64,000 bases of DNA from a virus (Duplodnaviria > Caudoviricetes), in the IMG/VR virus record IMGVR_UViG_3300035502_001274, positions 124,842-188,841 of that record; one strand, written 5' to 3'. The notes below the pieces were generated by a model. That model ran no database searches. It saw nothing but the letters and a program-made list of their open reading frames with translations, and had not been told where the DNA came from. Both the position numbers and the translations under genes were made by a program. Below are positions 10,141 through 55,726 of this stretch, in pieces; positions within the stretch are counted from its first letter, which is position 1; each line of letters starts with the position of its first letter.

Positions 10141-10148
10141 TATATCAT
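10141..10148 (+). promoter_or_regulatory. Early-type promoter
   Basis: TATATCAT in intergenic DNA. Confidence 0.55.
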
Positions 10149-16829: not shown

Positions 16830-16903
16830 AGAAGGAGAGCGAAAATTCTTTACAATCGCCCTCTAAAATTTGTGAAGGCTATTAAGCCAGAAAGGAAAAC
16901 ATC

Positions 16904-17707
16904 ATGTTTACTTCTAAGAAATTTGCCAAGTCCGCCGCTCGTACCAGCATCCAGCATACGTTTAACCAGACCGCAAACGTCCCCGGCTACACCGAGACCG
17001 CCAACGCGTTCAAGATCTTCATCCAGTCCACAAAGGATGTCTCCAACATCGGTGGCATTCGCCAGTCGATCTTGCTGCTCGGCAGCAAGAATCCGGCGTT
17101 CACCGCTCTCTACGGCGCCAAGTTCTTCATCGTCGGCAAGAGCTTCATGGCCGCGTCCCACAAGGAGCAGCTGTGCATGATCGCCAATGAGCTGATGCGG
17201 AACGGGGAGTGCGATCAGGCCAACGCCATTTTGACCGCGGTCAGCACTCACAACTACAGCACCATTCTGGCTCGTGCGGATATGGCCGATGTCGACCTGG
17301 CCGACGGTGTTGCGACTCCCAATGACCTGGCTGATCGCCGGGTTGCGCTGTCTGGTGCCTTTGGAGCTCGCACGGCTAAGAAGGTCGTCTCGACTGAGGT
17401 GCGCAAAGCCATGCATGACAGCACCATCGACGCCACTGTTGTCGCCAAGGCCGGCAAGGTGGAGAAGACCTTGTACAACAAGAAGACCTGGAAGCCCGCC
17501 GTCAAGTCTGCCAAGGTTTTCAACGATGCTGCGATGAAGGGCGTCAAGACCGAGGCTAAGACTGCGAAGGCTCAGGCTAAGGCCGACGCGAGAGTTGCCA
17601 AGCAGGCTGCCAAGGCCGCTCCCGTCGACCTGGAGCAGGAAGCTGCCGACATCGATGTCGAGATTGTCAACGACATGGGTGCCGAGGCTGCGGCCGCTGC
17701 TTGCTAA
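16904..17707 (+). CDS. Early Ala/Lys-rich hypothetical protein
   Basis: AGAAAGGA SD; strongly biased codons; AK-rich C-terminal part. Confidence 0.8.
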   Translation: MFTSKKFAKSAARTSIQHTFNQTANVPGYTETANAFKIFIQSTKDVSNIGGIRQSILLLGSKNPAFTALYGAKFFIVGKSFMAASHKEQLCMIANELMRNGECDQANAILTAVSTHNYSTILARADMADVDLADGVATPNDLADRRVALSGAFGARTAKKVVSTEVRKAMHDSTIDATVVAKAGKVEKTLYNKKTWKPAVKSAKVFNDAAMKGVKTEAKTAKAQAKADARVAKQAAKAAPVDLEQEAADIDVEIVNDMGAEAAAAAC

Positions 17708-19940: not shown

Positions 19941-19977
19941 AAAAAGAGAATTACCATTTCTGGTAATTCTCTTTTTT
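19941..19977. terminator. Bidirectional terminator
   Basis: AAAAAGAGAATTACCA/TGGTAATTCTCTTTTT. Confidence 0.88.
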
Positions 19978-20298
19978 GGCCCAAGGGTAGTTCGGAAAGC
20001 CAGATATCTTGTGCGATGGGCTTAAGCGGTGCCCTACTACGAGACCCTTCTCCTCTCTGAAGACGGTTTCAAGTAGCCTACGCCTTGTCGATCCGGGCAT
20101 ACAGTAATGGTCACGCCCATTATATCACAGAATTCAGGAGTTGAACCGGCTCCCTCTGGATGTTACTCACATACGACTCTTCCTGATGGAAGTCCCTATG
20201 CTTTCACAACACGTTCCATGATAACGGCACTGTACGTTGGTCCCACTGTCTAGCGGGGCATTTATCCCTGCTGACCGCTAACTTGGCTCGGTAGAGCC
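19941..20298 (-). ncRNA. Putative structured late ncRNA (unclassified)
   Basis: Late promoter at 20299-20311, 5' hairpin GGCTC-tacc-GAGCC, many local stems, no credible ORF, ends in a terminator. Confidence 0.6.
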
Positions 20299-20311
20299 TT
20301 AAGACGTTGTA
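20299..20311 (-). promoter_or_regulatory. Late-type promoter
   Basis: TACA-acgtct-TAA. Confidence 0.65.
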
Positions 20312-32094: not shown

Positions 32095-32306
32095 ATCATC
32101 TCCAAGAGAGGTCCCCGTGTCTACATACGGGGACCTCTCCCAGAACGGCAAATTAGCACACTTGTGTCTCTTTTTTGCCGGGATTTGCCGTCATAAAATT
32201 AAACATATCGTAACACATCTGGTAATGCACCAATTTCTAGAAATTGGTACGGGACCACAATTGCTCTACCAGTTGTGCTATCTTTATACTGAAAGGAAAC
32301 TGCTCT

Positions 32307-33137
32307 ATGTCAATTCATTACGTTAATGAGCACCTTATCACCGAAGAGGTTACCGGCGAAGGGACTTGGCCTCAGAATAACGATGAGGCTTACAAGAGAA
32401 TTATGATCAAGACGACTGAAGATGCGGTCCGCAAGCTGGAGGACGGCTCCTTTGAGCCCAACATCCGGACGATCTGCGCCCACAACTGCAGCCTGGTTCC
32501 CACGGCCTACACCCGGATCTCTTCTACCATTCGTGACGGCGCTTTTGCGCCCAAGATCACCATCCGCACTTCCACCGATACCCGCTACAACAGCGATATC
32601 TTTGTGGTCGCCCTGCCCTACGACGGCATGATCAAGCCCTTCACGCACAACACCAATGCGCTGAACATCTTCAAGAGCCTGATCGTGAAATCCGACAAGT
32701 TCAGCATCAAGCATGAGGACCACACCTATCGCCGCTGCGCCTACTTCATCGTCCGTCCCCATCATGACTGGCTGGGCAACGATGGCTGGTACGGCCCCGA
32801 CTGCGACCTGGTTCTGACCTTTGCGCAGTCCAACCGCAACAAGGCTACCCAGTCCGACGAGGAGCTGCAGTGGACCTTCAAGACGGTTCGCGTTCGGTTC
32901 GGCGAAAACGGCAAGTACGAGATCACCTCCACCGAGGAGACCGCCCCCTATGACACCTTCAATCCCGAGGACATCAAGTCCGCTCCCATTTGCGAGCTGG
33001 TGGCTCCCACTCAGCTGCATGATGACGGCACCGGCACTTTCCGTCGGGAAGAGCGTCACAATGACGGCGGCCGGGATCGCGATGACCGCGGCGGCAACCG
33101 TAATAACGGTTTCAAGAAGGGCGGCAAGCGCCGCTAA
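32307..33137 (+). CDS. Hypothetical protein with RGG-rich basic tail
   Basis: ATG 32307 after GAAAGGA; tail RDDRGGNRNNGFKKGGKRR. Confidence 0.8.
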   Translation: MSIHYVNEHLITEEVTGEGTWPQNNDEAYKRIMIKTTEDAVRKLEDGSFEPNIRTICAHNCSLVPTAYTRISSTIRDGAFAPKITIRTSTDTRYNSDIFVVALPYDGMIKPFTHNTNALNIFKSLIVKSDKFSIKHEDHTYRRCAYFIVRPHHDWLGNDGWYGPDCDLVLTFAQSNRNKATQSDEELQWTFKTVRVRFGENGKYEITSTEETAPYDTFNPEDIKSAPICELVAPTQLHDDGTGTFRREERHNDGGRDRDDRGGNRNNGFKKGGKRR

Positions 33138-36652: not shown

Positions 36653-39136
36653 ATGGCAGTAATTGATCTTCAACAGTACCAGCGCATGAACGATGCGTTC
36701 AGCGAGCATATGTATCGTATGTGGGGACCAACTCTGATCGGATTCCCAAGCGATACGGACTCTTCAAGAGCCCTGATGGCCACAAGCCAGCAAAAGCAGT
36801 TTCTAACCTTGCTGAACCCTGACGTTCCCCACGTCTTGACTGGCTTCGAGAATGCGTTTGGACAGCACAATCGCTCCTACAAGAAGCTGGATGGCGAGTG
36901 GGAAGTAGTAGATCGCGTCGACAAGTTCGGCGACGGCTCTGTATACACCCTCGTTCTCTACAATAAGGACACGAGAACTTACGACATGATCGAGAAAGTC
37001 ACCGCTGTCACCAAGACCGAGAAGTTCGGCTATCTGAATAACACGGAAAAGATGGACTCCTTGGAAGTCGGTGACAAGGTCAAAGACGCAGTTCTCTACA
37101 AGTCCACTTCATATGACAAGAACATGAACTACCGCCTGGGTAAGAATGCACTTGTCATGTACTCCACTTCCAATCCTACCATTGAAGATGCCATCTATGT
37201 CAGAAAAGGCTGGGCCGATACCGTGCAGTTCGTAGAGCTGGACACGGTCACGGTCCCTCTGAATGACAATGACATCTTCATCAATCGGTATGGAACGGAT
37301 AATGAGTATAAACCTTTCCCTGGCGTTGGCGAGCATGTCGTGGATAGTGTCATTTGCACTACCAGACGGATCGTCAAAGAGCACCTGCTGTATGATTTTC
37401 AGAGCAGAAACCTGCGGCAGAGCTGCTCCACCGATGTGGACTTCTTCACGTCTAAGAATGCGTATGTCTATGACATCAACGTCTATTACAATGGCGATGA
37501 AGAATTCCCACAGAATCTCTTCCACAGAGAGCTGGGAGAAGTCTATAGAGCATGCTGCACCTACGCAGATCGGCTTACCATCATCGCTAGGGAAATCAAA
37601 GAGAAGTGCAAGGGAAACTCTCGTTACCATTACACTTCTCACATTCCGCAGATCATCAGCAAGTATCAGCATGTAAGCGACCCTGAATACAAGTGGAAAT
37701 ACAAGGATCGTGAATTTGCCAATATCTTGGTGACCTTTAAGACCTATGCAGTGGTCAGCTTGCAAGCTGGCTATAAGCTGGTCGGCCGCTATGGCGATAA
37801 GGGCGTCATCTCCCGCATTGCCAGCGATAACATCGCAGAGGACACCGGCGAGACCGCCTACATTGAAGAGGTGATCAAGAATGGCCTCGTCAATAACTTC
37901 CAGGAGGAACTGACTCCTGAAGAGATGGCCATGTTGGCCAAGCGCTTCCATGTCGTGGAAGACAGTGAAATGCCCTACATGGAAGACGGCACCAAGGTGG
38001 ATATCCTTCTGAATGCTTCGGGAGCTATCCGAAGGCTTAACAATGGCCAGCTGGATGAGGTTGACTTGGCATTCCAGATGGAGTGCATCCGCAAGGAGAT
38101 CGTTAAGACGGAGGACATCGAGGAGAAGTATGCACTGCTCTTCAAGTTTCTGGAGATCGTCAATCGAGATGAATACAAGTTCTTCTATGGAAAGTATGCG
38201 CAGTGGTCTCAGAGAGTCACTGTCGATGGCCGGACCATTCAGCTGTTGGACCAGGAAGAGCGTTTGAGATTTATCAAGGACGTGGAAGAGCACGGCATCT
38301 ATCTCGTGAAACCGCCTCATGCATGTATCCGCTATGATACCGTCAAGGCGGTCTATGATGCATTCCCCTTCATTCAGCCTGTCCAGCTCTACATTGACAA
38401 GTTTGGGATTCCTCGGAAGAAGATTATGCGGCGGTGCATCGTGGGCACCAAGTACATGTATGCACTTAAGCAGACCTCTAATAAGAACTTCTCCGCGCGG
38501 TCGATGGGCCGTGTGAATAAGAAGGGCTTACCGGAGAAGTCCACCGATAAGAGAGACAATCGCGCAGAGATCAGCCACAATCCGCTGAAGTTGGGTGAGG
38601 TTCATAACCTCATGAGCTCCATCTCCGGCAGAGAAATGGCGGAGCATAACATCTTTACGAGAAGTTCCCCTGTCGGTCGCAAGTCTCTGCGTCGTATTCT
38701 GCAGGCCGCTGGAGATCCTGGTCAGATTCATAAGCTGAAGCTCAAGGCAGATTACCGCAACGTCAATGCGGACATCTTCAACGCTTATTTGAAGAGCTGG
38801 GGTATCCGGGTCAACTTCATGACTGATATCGACAACATCGAGGACATCTACATGGACGTGGTGCAACCTTTCCAGGTTCACGGCTATACGGTCTTTGATG
38901 TGCCTTCCAATAGGGATGTCTATGCCGCCCTCTTTGATGCTTATGAGAAGATCAAGGATGAAAACATCATTGTGCTGGACGGCGATACTGACTTGAATAC
39001 GTTCATCTGGAATAAGGTCTTTGAAGATGAGCGCTTCAAGGATACGCCTGAAGACATGCGGCGTGTATGTCTGGGCGCTTCCAATGGCGAATATGCCATC
39101 AAGGAAGACAAGACGCAGGACGAAGATGACGACTAA
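36653..39136 (+). CDS. rpoB: Multisubunit RNA polymerase beta subunit, C-terminal part (probably non-virion RNAP)
   Basis: DSSRALMATSQQKQ, EDAI, GYKLVGRYGDKGVIS, MPYMEDG.KVDILLN, RRLNNGQL, VGTKYMYALKQ. Confidence 0.92.
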   Translation: MAVIDLQQYQRMNDAFSEHMYRMWGPTLIGFPSDTDSSRALMATSQQKQFLTLLNPDVPHVLTGFENAFGQHNRSYKKLDGEWEVVDRVDKFGDGSVYTLVLYNKDTRTYDMIEKVTAVTKTEKFGYLNNTEKMDSLEVGDKVKDAVLYKSTSYDKNMNYRLGKNALVMYSTSNPTIEDAIYVRKGWADTVQFVELDTVTVPLNDNDIFINRYGTDNEYKPFPGVGEHVVDSVICTTRRIVKEHLLYDFQSRNLRQSCSTDVDFFTSKNAYVYDINVYYNGDEEFPQNLFHRELGEVYRACCTYADRLTIIAREIKEKCKGNSRYHYTSHIPQIISKYQHVSDPEYKWKYKDREFANILVTFKTYAVVSLQAGYKLVGRYGDKGVISRIASDNIAEDTGETAYIEEVIKNGLVNNFQEELTPEEMAMLAKRFHVVEDSEMPYMEDGTKVDILLNASGAIRRLNNGQLDEVDLAFQMECIRKEIVKTEDIEEKYALLFKFLEIVNRDEYKFFYGKYAQWSQRVTVDGRTIQLLDQEERLRFIKDVEEHGIYLVKPPHACIRYDTVKAVYDAFPFIQPVQLYIDKFGIPRKKIMRRCIVGTKYMYALKQTSNKNFSARSMGRVNKKGLPEKSTDKRDNRAEISHNPLKLGEVHNLMSSISGREMAEHNIFTRSSPVGRKSLRRILQAAGDPGQIHKLKLKADYRNVNADIFNAYLKSWGIRVNFMTDIDNIEDIYMDVVQPFQVHGYTVFDVPSNRDVYAALFDAYEKIKDENIIVLDGDTDLNTFIWNKVFEDERFKDTPEDMRRVCLGASNGEYAIKEDKTQDEDDD

Positions 39137-39146
39137 GAGTCGTTGT

Positions 39147-39185
39147 AAAGAAGCTACTATCCGTTTGGATAGTAGCTTCTTTTTT
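39147..39185. terminator. Bidirectional terminator
   Basis: AAAGAAGCTACTATCC/GGATAGTAGCTTCTTT. Confidence 0.88.
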
Positions 39186-39503
39186 GAGGTGGAGAAATGG
39201 AGTTCTTCTTATGGGAACATACGAAAGGAATAGGTCGGAAAGAAAGGAAACACCATGTTCTTAGGAACCACACAAATACTGAAAGGAAGAGACCGCCAGG
39301 GGATGCCCTAACCATAAGGCAGCGTAGCGATACTGCCAGTTACGGCATCCCCTGCAGTAAAGGAGGGGTGATCATGCCGGCTCCCCGCACCAGCGTCATC
39401 ATCCGTTGGAGGGTTTCATCCGTGTATCCATGCCGCACCGAAAGGACGCGCCGAGCAGACATACTCGCCACGCGTCTCAACACGAGAGGTCTGACCCGAC
39501 CTC
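39147..39503 (-). ncRNA. Putative late ncRNA rich in anti-Shine-Dalgarno segments
   Basis: Late promoter at 39504-39516; 5' hairpin GAGGTC/GACCTC; 11-bp stem CAGGGGATGCC/GGCATCCCCTG; repeated TTCCTTTC; terminator at the 3' end. Confidence 0.55.
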
Positions 39504-39516
39504 TTACTTAGATGTT
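39504..39516 (-). promoter_or_regulatory. Late-type promoter
   Basis: AACA-tctaag-TAA. Confidence 0.65.
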
Positions 39517-39581
39517 TTGGCTTATTTTTATTGACGTGGTGCAGGAGAAAAGTCAGAAAACATCGTAAAATGCCGCCTTCA

Positions 39582-39594
39582 AACATCCGTTTAA
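39582..39594 (+). promoter_or_regulatory. Late-type promoter
   Basis: AACA-tccgtt-TAA. Confidence 0.7.
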
Positions 39595-39618
39595 TTAGCA
39601 AGGTAGGTGATTTGAATC

Positions 39619-40911
39619 GTGAATCAAACCCTAAGCTTAGAGCAAGAACTGGAAGCTCTCAAGTACCAACCTGCTATGGAAGTAACGACCAGCGAACTGT
39701 TGACCATCATTGGCGGCAGAAAGGAATTCTTCAATAAGTTTTACTTCACCATCGTAAAAACACTGCCTGGCAAGACTTCGAAGTTGATGAGAGGCATCAA
39801 TGCCTATCGAGACAAGAATATTGAGGCGCTGTCTAGTCCCTACTTTCTGAACTATACCGTCTTCAGCAAGGAAGGTATGGACGGGCAGCTCATCTGGGAT
39901 TGCTCTGGCGTGAAGTTGGACGATGTACAGAAAGAGATCGATATCTTCAAGAAAGAAATCAAGGACGGGTGTAAAATGCATGGATACACGTCGCCTGCCA
40001 AGGACTTTCAGAACTTGGAAGCGCTGCGTGTGATCATGGTCATGATGATCCGTTTCTATGTGGAACGAGGAGAGAAAGAGCACGTCACACAGATGTGCGC
40101 CTACTTTGCATACTCCTTGTACCATACTCTCTTTGTGAACTCGTTCCCATACGGTGTGCGAAAAGAGACCATGGAATACACCATGGCCAATATCACCAAT
40201 AAGCACAAGTTGAAGAATCAAGGCTCTGTCGACAGCGTGCTCACCTATGGCATTGAGCTGTGTGTTCAAAGCTATAAGAAGCGCCTGATGGACTGCACTG
40301 ATCATGATATTCTCTATATCATCGACCAGTTTAAGTCCCGTATCAGAGGCTACATCGTTGGTATCGCTCAGAAGTATTACCCCAATGATGAGAAGAAGGA
40401 AGCAATTTTCAGCAGTTCAGAGATGCTGGACACGGAAGATGGCGCTGACTTCGTAGAGCGAAATTCCCAGCTGGGTAATGTCGAGCAGATGGCACAGGAA
40501 TATGCCACCAAGTTCTTCCAGAAGCCCGTTGATGATGAGATCCTTCAAGTGTGCTCCAAAATGAATCAAGTTTCTAAACCTGAATTGAAAAATGCTGTCT
40601 CTGCTTTGAGAGCGGACAAAGCTCGCATCCCGGAGGTGAAGCAGTTCTATTCAGGCATTTTCTACCTGTTTTATGACAATGCCGGCGAATCGTCCACTGT
40701 CCACTCCAAGAAGTTCCTGGCGGAGATGGATGCCATCTACAAGAAGGGCAACTCCAAGGAGAAGAATATCACGATGGTGAAACGAATGCTGGATAACTGG
40801 CTGCAGGCAACTTCCCAAACTTATCGTGAGGTGAGTCGGTCTGCGACCATTAACAACTTCAGGAAGGCGCTGTTTCAGTACTTCGTCTTCGTAGTTGCAC
40901 TGCGTAATTAA
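39619..40911 (+). CDS. Putative virion protein in the virion-RNAP operon
   Basis: GTG start after AGGTGA; PAMEV A-x-E motif near the N-terminus; late promoter. Confidence 0.65.
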   Translation: MNQTLSLEQELEALKYQPAMEVTTSELLTIIGGRKEFFNKFYFTIVKTLPGKTSKLMRGINAYRDKNIEALSSPYFLNYTVFSKEGMDGQLIWDCSGVKLDDVQKEIDIFKKEIKDGCKMHGYTSPAKDFQNLEALRVIMVMMIRFYVERGEKEHVTQMCAYFAYSLYHTLFVNSFPYGVRKETMEYTMANITNKHKLKNQGSVDSVLTYGIELCVQSYKKRLMDCTDHDILYIIDQFKSRIRGYIVGIAQKYYPNDEKKEAIFSSSEMLDTEDGADFVERNSQLGNVEQMAQEYATKFFQKPVDDEILQVCSKMNQVSKPELKNAVSALRADKARIPEVKQFYSGIFYLFYDNAGESSTVHSKKFLAEMDAIYKKGNSKEKNITMVKRMLDNWLQATSQTYREVSRSATINNFRKALFQYFVFVVALRN

Positions 40912-43168: not shown

Positions 43169-43196
43169 GGTTTTCACTTCCTTTCTTTCTAGGTCT

Positions 43197-53936: not shown

Positions 53937-55697
53937 TCATTTCACAATGATTTTACGCATGGACATCTTCATCGACCTGATCTCAGACTTGCTGGGAGTA
54001 GTGGCCGACTTCATAGCTCCAAAGTGCTTAGCGATGACCTGGGGATCAAACCTGCAGAAGAGCAGATAATCATCCCTGCTGGTATCGCCAAATTTCCCAG
54101 TGAGAATACGAGCACACGCGTCATCCAATTGAGCTTCATCGACGGGAGCTTGCTTCTTGGAGGGCATCTTGGCCACCATCTCCAAAACAGATCCTCTCAG
54201 TTGCCTGGCCTTATCCTTGGTAATTCCAAAGTTCTTGGCCACCGATGCGATATTCCGTTTATCGCAAGAGCGGATCTCTTTGATCTCGGCAGGGCATAAG
54301 GTTTCCCAGAGCTCTACCTGTTGCATTGCACTGGTATCGACCTTATTTGCAGCTACAGCTAAATCCATTTCATTCTGAATCTGTACGATGGTCTTGGCAT
54401 CATCAGGAAGTGGGGCCGTAAACTGTAGATTGGGATAGATGATTTGAATATCCGCTTGGGCCGCCTTGATGTAAGAGTGCGGCATTCCTGTGATCTCTAC
54501 AGCTCGATCTTCAGTGGCAGTCAGCATCTCTATCATCTGGTCTTTATCCAATTTGAATAGCTTGAACCGCCTTCTTGCACTTTTCTTAGCTCGCATTAGA
54601 TTGAGCATCTTAGCCGATAAGGTGTCATAGATGAAGGGATCGGGAGCATCTAGCTGAGCATCCACATCGGGATAGGCAGTATCCCGCAACGCTTTCCTGA
54701 TGCGAGAAGCTGTCGACTTAGATTGGATGCCGCTCTGCTGTACAATGTCGGTGATTGTCATCGTTGTCAGTTTGAGCTGGTCCGCAATGGACAGCTGTTC
54801 TGGCATCGACTTGACTTCCACTCCTTCCAGGAAATCGGATCCCTGATAGATTTTGGAAGTTCCAGCTACTGGATAGACGCCGCCAATGGTTTCTGTCAGG
54901 AATTTGGCGAACTGCTCCGTCTGCATGACGTTGTAATTGACTTCGACGTCTTTCTTGATCTGCTTCTGGGTTACAAATCCGTCATCTTTCTTGGGAGGTT
55001 CTTCTCCCAGTCTTGCAGAGTTGAAGGATTCTCCTTCTTCATAGATCTGCTGTGTTTCCCTGTCATATTCCGTCAGAGTTGCAATGAGATGATTCTCCAC
55101 GGTATAACTGTCTTTGGGAGCTTCTTGCAGCAGAATGGGATTGGAGGGTCCTTTAGATCTATGAGAAGAATGATCCCGCCGGCTCTTATCCAAAGCCAGC
55201 TCTTCCATGTCGCTAACGGCCAACTTGATATCATGCACGATGATATTGCGGTCGTAACCTGACAGGTGCTTCCACTCCTTCACGTAATCAGGGATCTCCT
55301 TGCTAAATCCCAGATGATACATGACACCAATCCGAACCTTTTCAAAGTCCTCATCAGAGAGGCAAAGCAACTTTCGACGATGATTGGTGGCGATCATTGG
55401 GAAAAGGAACTTGGTCTTGATATTGTAAATGAGATAGGGCAAGACAGTCCCGCCCTCTACCAGAGATCCATCTTTACAGATGGTGGATTCGATGGGAATA
55501 CCGCTTCTCCTATCAGAATGTGTCATGGGACAAACCGTGATGTTGTCGTTCCATTCGGGATAAAATGCTTGCTGAATGATCACTACAGGTCTCGAGGTGA
55601 CGGCGCCCAGCTCCTTTTTCCTTTCTTGGTCTTTGGAAGCTGAAGGATTATAGTAAAACCACACCTGACCTGGCATAAATTCACGAAATCCAGCCAT
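53937..55697 (-). CDS. PemK/MazF-domain protein with long C-terminal extension
   Basis: PGQVWF...RPVVIIQ...NITVCPMTH PemK pattern; start MAGFREF after AGGAGG. Confidence 0.72.
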   Translation of the reverse strand: MAGFREFMPGQVWFYYNPSASKDQERKKELGAVTSRPVVIIQQAFYPEWNDNITVCPMTHSDRRSGIPIESTICKDGSLVEGGTVLPYLIYNIKTKFLFPMIATNHRRKLLCLSDEDFEKVRIGVMYHLGFSKEIPDYVKEWKHLSGYDRNIIVHDIKLAVSDMEELALDKSRRDHSSHRSKGPSNPILLQEAPKDSYTVENHLIATLTEYDRETQQIYEEGESFNSARLGEEPPKKDDGFVTQKQIKKDVEVNYNVMQTEQFAKFLTETIGGVYPVAGTSKIYQGSDFLEGVEVKSMPEQLSIADQLKLTTMTITDIVQQSGIQSKSTASRIRKALRDTAYPDVDAQLDAPDPFIYDTLSAKMLNLMRAKKSARRRFKLFKLDKDQMIEMLTATEDRAVEITGMPHSYIKAAQADIQIIYPNLQFTAPLPDDAKTIVQIQNEMDLAVAANKVDTSAMQQVELWETLCPAEIKEIRSCDKRNIASVAKNFGITKDKARQLRGSVLEMVAKMPSKKQAPVDEAQLDDACARILTGKFGDTSRDDYLLFCRFDPQVIAKHFGAMKSATTPSKSEIRSMKMSMRKIIVK

Positions 55698-55726
55698 GCA
55701 TTCGTTCCTCCTTTCATTCATTTATT

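Follow-up and report, generated by a model that had tools for sequence, protein, structure and literature searches.

In the genome of an uncultured AR9-like giant gut phage, the 480-nt gap between two plus-strand genes very probably contains a gene for a structured non-coding RNA (ncRNA) that would be transcribed from the minus strand. Comparison of 13 lineages shows the unit to be conserved, non-coding, strand-specific and structured, and enriched in motifs that are complementary to Shine–Dalgarno (SD) sequences and start codons and are predicted to be accessible. The function of the RNA can be assigned only tentatively: its main action might be pairing with ribosome-binding sites (RBSs), which would make it a late, multivalent anti-RBS RNA. 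A minus-strand anti-RBS ncRNA had already been proposed in the preliminary description of this DNA; the proposal has gained conservation, covariation and anti-SD enrichment across the 13 lineages, and has lost the targets that it named.

The phage record is a single contig of 188,841 bp, and the window, that is, the whole 64,000-nt stretch analyzed, represents its last 64 kb. On one side of the gap lies the gene for an RNA polymerase beta-like protein of 827 aa (36653-39136), with a Pfam Rpb2_6 match and about 27% identity to the beta subunit encoded by the Bacillus phages AR9 and PBS1, in which the homologue is annotated as a non-virion RNA polymerase subunit. The gene on the far side (39619-40911) encodes a 430-aa protein that belongs to no Pfam family and is served by a divergent late promoter, AACATCCGTTTAA (39582-39594, plus strand), located outside the RNA; nearly all relatives keep a promoter of this type ahead of the homologous gene. 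The 430-aa protein family is conserved across many jumbo-phage contigs from gut, rumen and bioreactors, nearly always with AACA-N6-TAA 15-60 nt upstream, and a graded series of its metagenome homologues supplied the loci that were compared, the 13 lineages being the window and 12 others.

The interval between the two genes is a hotspot of gene gain and loss in which the RNA unit stays. Depending on the relative, it accommodates one to four minus-strand genes (2248-3520 in L001, 1419-2889 in L015, 2197-2904 in L040, and 765-2834 in L013, where an ABC-transporter-like gene is included). The RNA unit is an independent module: minus-strand protein genes are found upstream of it in L040 and L015, and downstream of it, behind the RNA's own terminator, in L001. 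A conserved A/T block, ATTTTTATTG (39524-39534, plus strand), is located between the two divergent late promoters and can be aligned in L006, L007, L010 and L014.

The predicted RNA starts at a late-type promoter core of the form AACA-N6-TAA, AACATCTAAGTAA (39504-39516, minus strand). The genome contains 25 such sites, 19 of which are intergenic, compared with an intergenic share of the genome of 9.4%, and nearly all precede a same-strand start codon by 13-70 nt. In this phage, AACA-N6-TAA can be counted as a true promoter-type element, and the site at 39504-39516 is the sole intergenic one without a gene behind it. The motif matches the late consensus of AR9, AACA-6N-TA/G, in which transcription starts at the last base (PMC5312081), and by analogy with AR9 the transcription start site is predicted to be the A at about 39505. 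Some AR9 late promoters have one or two non-consensus bases, and the late promoters of that phage also drive transcripts other than mRNAs, including antisense and orphan ones (PMC5312081).

Across the lineages, AAC-N7-TAA is kept at the same place on the minus strand in 13 of 13, with a free spacer, and only 7 of the 13 have an A as the fourth promoter base. The promoter had been described as perfect, and this is true of its core; its flanks and spacer are poor, scoring -12.4 compared with a leave-one-out median of about +6 for gene promoters (with a matrix built from 18 gene-proximal promoters of the same genome), a context unlike that of the other late promoters of the genome. Another motif, ATATCATT-N3-(G/A)TGA, is present at about two dozen intergenic sites, for example, at window positions 10143, 16303, 17803, 27258 and 28553. 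ATATCATT-N3-GTGA, which is distinct from AACA-N6-TAA, is probably the early promoter, and none is detectable in the 480-nt gap.

At the opposite end, a 16-bp hairpin with a T run (39148-39183) would close the RNA. The 3' end of the RNA is thus placed at a hairpin shared with the beta-like gene, the end of which is marked by a hairpin with A and T runs (39148-39189) that is taken as a bidirectional terminator. Compensatory changes are found in this hairpin among relatives and the same arrangement is seen in all lineages; a simple terminator scan did not call the 39148-39189 hairpin, its sole call being the apex of the big hairpin described below. The predicted RNA is about 360 nt long, running roughly from 39505 down to 39145, and its counterparts in relatives range from 125 to 430 nt. 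The main landmarks noted previously, namely the late promoter core, the hairpin at the start and the terminator-like hairpin at the end, are all present. The window contains a second stand-alone unit (19941-20311, minus strand), in which TACAACGTCTTAA (TACA-N6-TAA) is directly followed by a small hairpin, GGCUC..GAGCC, and, after about 350 nt, by a strong T-run terminator hairpin; CU-rich motifs are not obvious in this unit, and Rfam gives no match.

The gap is homologous in the closest relatives (protein identity of 75, 71 and 65%), and the parts that are kept include the terminator hairpin of the beta gene, a core at about 39290-39503, and the minus-strand AACA and TAA elements with a free 6-nt spacer. 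The core is organized around three hairpins on the minus strand. The first of these, P1 (GAGGUC / GACCUC, 39486-39503, with stems at 39486-39491 and 39498-39503), lies at the predicted 5' end; a hairpin directly follows TAA in all 13 lineages and its stem sequence is different in each, which amounts to covariation. The second, P2 (GACGCG..CGAGUA..CUGCUCG..CGCGUC, 39445-39476), is conserved in the closest clade and shows both compensatory and G-U substitutions there, together with an invariant U-G pair. The third and largest hairpin (39294-39357) combines an invariant apex CUGGC..GCC, a YYAU bulge followed by GG, and a fully covarying outer stem that is wholly rewritten in each lineage, with covariation complete across 7 lineages; it, too, includes an invariant U-G pair. 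Covariation in related phages, which the preliminary description had named as a check, is extensive: RNAalifold predicts 53 pairs for the close clade, 22 of which show compensatory double changes, and in the big hairpin such changes affect 14 of the 22 pairs.

The covariance model R1, built from five seed sequences, recovers the non-seed lineages L010, L014 and L042, on the minus strand only, and the big hairpin is present in a single copy in the genome. The minimal forms of the unit, L011 and L039 (about 125 nt), lack the big hairpin and comprise little beyond the 5' hairpin and CACCUCCG, to which a second hairpin or a CU tract and the terminator are added. Nucleotide search of the phage collection produced no match, and nhmmer, run with the close-clade alignment, recovered nothing beyond the seeds, so that a structure-based, motif-anchored comparison was needed; MAFFT alignments of the distant gaps (A3 and A6) were unreliable. 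A scan of IMG/VR with a pattern for the hairpin apex yielded only coding-sequence matches in P22-like contigs, which were rejected as false positives.

The motifs that had first drawn attention to this region are all present in the sequence at the positions listed. Read on the plus strand, these SD-like words are GAAAGGA at 39223, 39242, 39281 and 39440, GAGGTG at 39186, and AAAGGAGGGGTGATC at 39359-39373. Six orphan SD-like words of at least 6 bases within 370 nt represent the genome-wide maximum, with about 0.07% of the scanned segments reaching that number. The SD consensus of the phage is GAAAGGAGGTGAT, and GAAAGGA is the commonest 7-mer in the regions upstream of genes; the GAAAGGAA repeats are therefore copies of the typical ribosome-binding site of this phage. 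The gene called from TTG 32244 (window 32286-32310) probably starts at an ATG near 32307, behind a GAAAGGAA SD.

On the minus strand, the same region displays pyrimidine tracts between the hairpins. UCCUUUC is followed by GGUGCGGCAUGGAUACAC (39424-39446), which resembles the 3' strand of helix 45 of 16S rRNA. CU-rich motif 1, AACCCUCCAAC (39405-39415), has a CCUCC, CUUCC or CUCCU core at the equivalent place in 9 lineages and may pair with the conserved GGGGA at 39382-39386, in which case it is possibly sequestered. The second anti-TIR, CAUGAUCACCCCUCCUUU (39359-39376), joins a 16S-tail-like anti-SD to an anti-AUG directly 5' of the big hairpin; its mean unpaired probability is 0.59, and pyrimidine-rich equivalents occupy the same place in relatives. 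The remaining motifs belong to an insert specific to this phage (39186-39290), which carries CUCCACCUC with CAU, three copies of UUCCUUUC and one full anti-TIR, CAUGGUGUUUCCUUUCU, on the minus strand or, in the plus-strand reading, GAGGTGGAGAAATG and three of the four GAAAGGAA words. This insert is absent from L006-L009, and L010 has a different one; the conserved core carries only 1-3 anti-SD-type motifs. The multivalency claimed at the outset is, accordingly, present in this phage, with its six words, but most of it resides in the insert (39186-39290) that the closest relatives lack.

The enrichment of the RNAs in 16S-tail sequence can be quantified by counting exact tail k-mers (reference tail GAUCACCUCCUUUCU; PMC6107228). 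The 13 RNAs together contain 27 tail 6-mers, compared with 10.1 +/- 3.1 in dinucleotide shuffles, and 16 tail 7-mers, compared with 2.4 +/- 1.5, with neither number reached in any of the 1000 shuffles, although the lineages are related, and the pooled counts overstate their independence. The opposite strand contains 4 and 1, respectively. The window RNA alone has six 7-mers compared with 0.28 expected (0 of 1000 dinucleotide shuffles); when it is left out, the excess is smaller, 10 versus about 2.1, and most of the single relatives are not significant alone. Units in which CAU is followed, after 3-11 nt, by an anti-SD 5-mer number 16, compared with 3.5 +/- 1.9 in shuffled sequences, and are found in 11 of the 13 lineages, with three in the window RNA. 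The anti-SD motifs have a mean predicted unpaired probability of 0.68, compared with 0.36 for the whole RNAs; the preliminary supposition that the anti-SD segments are free to pair is thus matched by the prediction for most of them, but conservation does not extend to the copies in the insert.

Local alignment with the 16S 3' end reveals matches of 13/14 in both L015 and L001, of 13/15 in L007 and, with one gap, of 15/16 in L039, and the window RNA reads GAUCACC-CC-UCCUUU against the tail. Five lineages match 13-15 bases of the 16S tail, and the identity beyond the CCUCC core indicates an extended tail match.

The tail-like tracts are not the most strictly conserved part of these molecules. 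The strictest conservation is in the apex of the big hairpin rather than in any single CU tract, the CU tracts shift and change between lineages, and a lack of G is common in the unpaired tracts of RNAs at large. Furthermore, the enrichment is gone at a loose energy threshold: anti-SD sites at -7 kcal/mol number 84, compared with 75 +/- 5, and this count was replaced by that of exact tail k-mers. All these features would fit a structured ncRNA with another job, such as protein binding via the CUGGC..GCC-YYAU-GG hairpin or regulation of the polymerase, with the CU tracts being linkers. Such an RNA appears unlikely, however, given that L011 and L039, which have no big hairpin, still keep CACCUCCG, that the exact tail 7-mers and the CAU-spaced units exceed dinucleotide shuffles 4-7 times, and that tail matches of 13-15 nt recur in several lineages.

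The extent of the tail similarity itself brings up a further possibility, namely, that the RNA imitates the 16S 3' end (the tail and part of helix 45) and soaks up a factor that binds or cuts it, the candidates being a ribosome maturation factor and a MazF- or RelE-type nuclease, whether a host toxin or the MazF-domain protein that the phage itself encodes. The similarity reaches past CCUCC to AUCA/GAUCA. In the window and L010, it continues to GGUGCGGC(A)UGGA(U), like the 3' strand of helix 45, and 39424-39446 scores 22 against a Firmicute-type 16S 3' end, a value reached by 2 of 500 shuffles; no complementary 5' strand that would form a helix-45-like hairpin was found, and the helix-45 part of the reference is provisional. 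A search of control genomes for an actual Firmicute 16S end yielded no locus. Cleavage of the 16S anti-SD by MazF and RelE toxins has been described (PMC12274833, PMC12620021). The phage genome, moreover, encodes a 594-aa PemK/MazF-domain protein without a recognized antitoxin, which is kept in relatives. The gene for this protein (53937-55721, minus strand) has no recognized antitoxin adjacent to it; the N-terminal PemK/MazF match scores 26.7 bits (cut-off 23.1), and full-length homologues with 46-47% identity are found in two related viral contigs, with a partial one in a third.

Under the decoy reading, the multiple copies of the tail motif would be competing substrates, which could either protect ribosomes from host MazF-/RelE-type abortive-infection toxins or restrain these toxins or the phage MazF-domain protein. 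Nevertheless, a decoy of the 16S 3' end is quite improbable: the enrichment of CAU at start-codon distance is expected for TIR pairing and not for a 16S mimic, and it favors the former over the decoy model; the helix-45-like part, as judged against the provisional reference, is seen in the closest clade only; and co-occurrence with the MazF-domain gene does not discriminate between the readings. The chance that the RNA is a 16S 3'-end mimic, decoy or RNA antitoxin directed against nucleases that remove the anti-SD, and not an antisense regulator, seems slimmer still.

That the plus strand could instead be the functional one had been raised early on, in the form of micro-ORFs or of a GGA-rich CsrA sponge, to which decayed small genes can be added. 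The plus strand does have good SD and ATG geometry in most lineages, and genes have come and gone at this plastic locus. Nonetheless, no ORF is conserved across the lineages on either strand, and the plus-strand ORFs behind the SD-like words vary from 5 to 104 aa, are mutually unrelated and yield no conserved product. The stretch in question follows the terminator of the beta gene and precedes the plus-strand late promoter; no early promoter motif occurs there, nor does the gap offer a sponge any plus-strand promoter. After removal of the terminator, 11 of the 13 lineages have the more stable fold on the minus strand, with a difference of up to 29 kcal/mol, and G-U pairs are 2-3 times more numerous on that strand; the invariant U-G pair of the big hairpin would read A-C on the plus strand, and the conserved promoter and hairpin face the minus direction. 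Micro-ORFs and the sponge are both disfavored by this evidence, and any function of the plus strand is very improbable.

Searches for known RNAs came up empty, including the Rfam comparison suggested in the preliminary description: no Rfam 15 family reaches the gathering score in the window, with only noise at E-values up to 10 across 38900-39800; the csRNA, RsaE, LhrC and other Rfam models show no homology, and ARAGORN reports no tRNA or tmRNA. Covarying helices, strand asymmetry and the absence of a conserved ORF, taken together, are the hallmarks of a structured ncRNA. A DNA-level element (an origin, packaging site or protein-binding repeats) or an untranscribed spacer with chance motifs would agree with the weak promoter context and the fourfold occurrence of GAAAGGAA in this phage but has the least probability of all, considering that the helices keep their pairing through G-U intermediates on one strand only and that the hairpins and the promoter-hairpin junction are conserved, whereas the repeats are not.

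Anti-RBS pairing raises the question of targets, and here the early assignments did not hold up. The match of 39241-39259 to the RBS and ATG of the gene at 16904 (16889-16908) exists, with one gap and one mismatch, but represents generic SD similarity. Likewise, 39276-39288 is identical to 32286-32298, and 39238-39249 to 43178-43189 on the minus strand, at the 43168 peptide gene, but 13-mers and 12-mers, respectively, recur within the control range, the recurrence elsewhere in the window being not above chance (p about 0.06-0.09). The longest perfect complement to any of the phage's own TIRs is 13 nt. The RNAs of other phages match the TIRs of this phage as often as its own RNA does, and specific targets, including the genes at 16904, 32286 and 43168, were rejected on that ground; pairing would thus be generic and would also affect late phage mRNAs with the same SD. 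Comparison of the whole RNA with all TIRs using RNAduplex was uninformative because GC content dominates, with TIRs scoring worse than intragenic controls. With crude early and late classes, which leave 103 of the 189 genes unclassified, there is a weak bias toward early TIRs (p = 0.035).

The course of events that we infer, from transcription and its timing through the RNA ends to mRNA pairing and the identity of the mRNAs, would be as follows. The RNA would be transcribed, most likely, by the AR9-type non-virion RNA polymerase of the phage from the AAC-N7-TAA promoter; it would open with a protective 5' hairpin and close at the hairpin common to the beta gene. Between the covarying hairpins, pyrimidine tracts that copy the 16S tail (AUCACCUCCUUUCU-like) would be exposed, often preceded by CAU at start-codon distance, so that the RNA would present a mirror of the consensus ribosome-binding site. 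By pairing with the SD regions and start codons of mRNAs, it could compete with 30S subunits and lower the translation of messages with a strong SD.

If the RNA is made and acts in the proposed manner, AR9-like giant phages of gut Firmicutes would control translation via an RNA copy of the 16S tail, which would inhibit SD-dependent initiation in general, by competition, and would be the functional equivalent of T4 RegB. To our knowledge, very few regulatory RNAs of virulent phages have been characterized. The family lends itself to testing, as it combines a promoter and a 5' hairpin with modules that mimic the tail and can be exchanged, and minimal forms of about 125 nt exist in nature. The key question is how late phage mRNAs with the same SD would escape a generic anti-SD RNA, and the answer would separate an antisense RNA from a decoy.

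Several known systems share one or another feature with the phage RNA. The late units of AR9 have the same promoter grammar, AACA-6N-TA/G with the start site at the last base; downstream of the homologous beta gene, AR9 shows no synteny with this locus, and the available part of the AR9 report does not describe an anti-SD ncRNA (PMC5312081). CsrB/RsmZ and ToxI resemble the phage RNA in having repeated short motifs between hairpins, but the Csr sponges display GGA, which is the opposite polarity. ToxI neutralizes an endoRNase with the Kid/MazF fold and consists of 36-nt repeats in tandem beside the toxin gene, whereas the motifs of the phage RNA are not tandem and the MazF-domain gene is about 15 kb away. 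T4 RegB, an early phage protein, is an endoribonuclease that cuts early mRNAs at the SD (GGAG); the analogy is functional, a phage device that inactivates messages via the SD, but the phage RNA would mask the SD and not cut it. RsaE/RoxS, the hairpins of S. aureus RNAIII, SprX and LhrC come closer, with accessible C/U-rich motifs, several per RNA, that pair with G-rich SDs. Their motifs are short (UCCC or CCCC), and specificity comes from flanking pairing to defined targets; in contrast, the motif of the phage RNA reproduces as many as 13-15 nt of the 16S tail, and the search for specific targets detected none. The CiaRH-dependent csRNAs of Streptococcus (CcnA-E) are likewise stand-alone ncRNAs running from promoter to terminator, with unpaired anti-SD and anti-AUG (CAU) segments that mirror the TIR (PMC3091779). 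The csRNAs are encoded on the chromosome, measure about 100 nt, contain a single anti-TIR and two stem-loops, and are controlled by a two-component system of the host, whereas the phage RNA is phage-encoded, 125-430 nt long, preceded by an AR9-type late promoter, and endowed with several modules, without sequence or Rfam similarity to the csRNAs. On the best reading of these comparisons, the RNA would be a phage version of the csRNA, RsaE or LhrC kind that lies outside the Rfam families.
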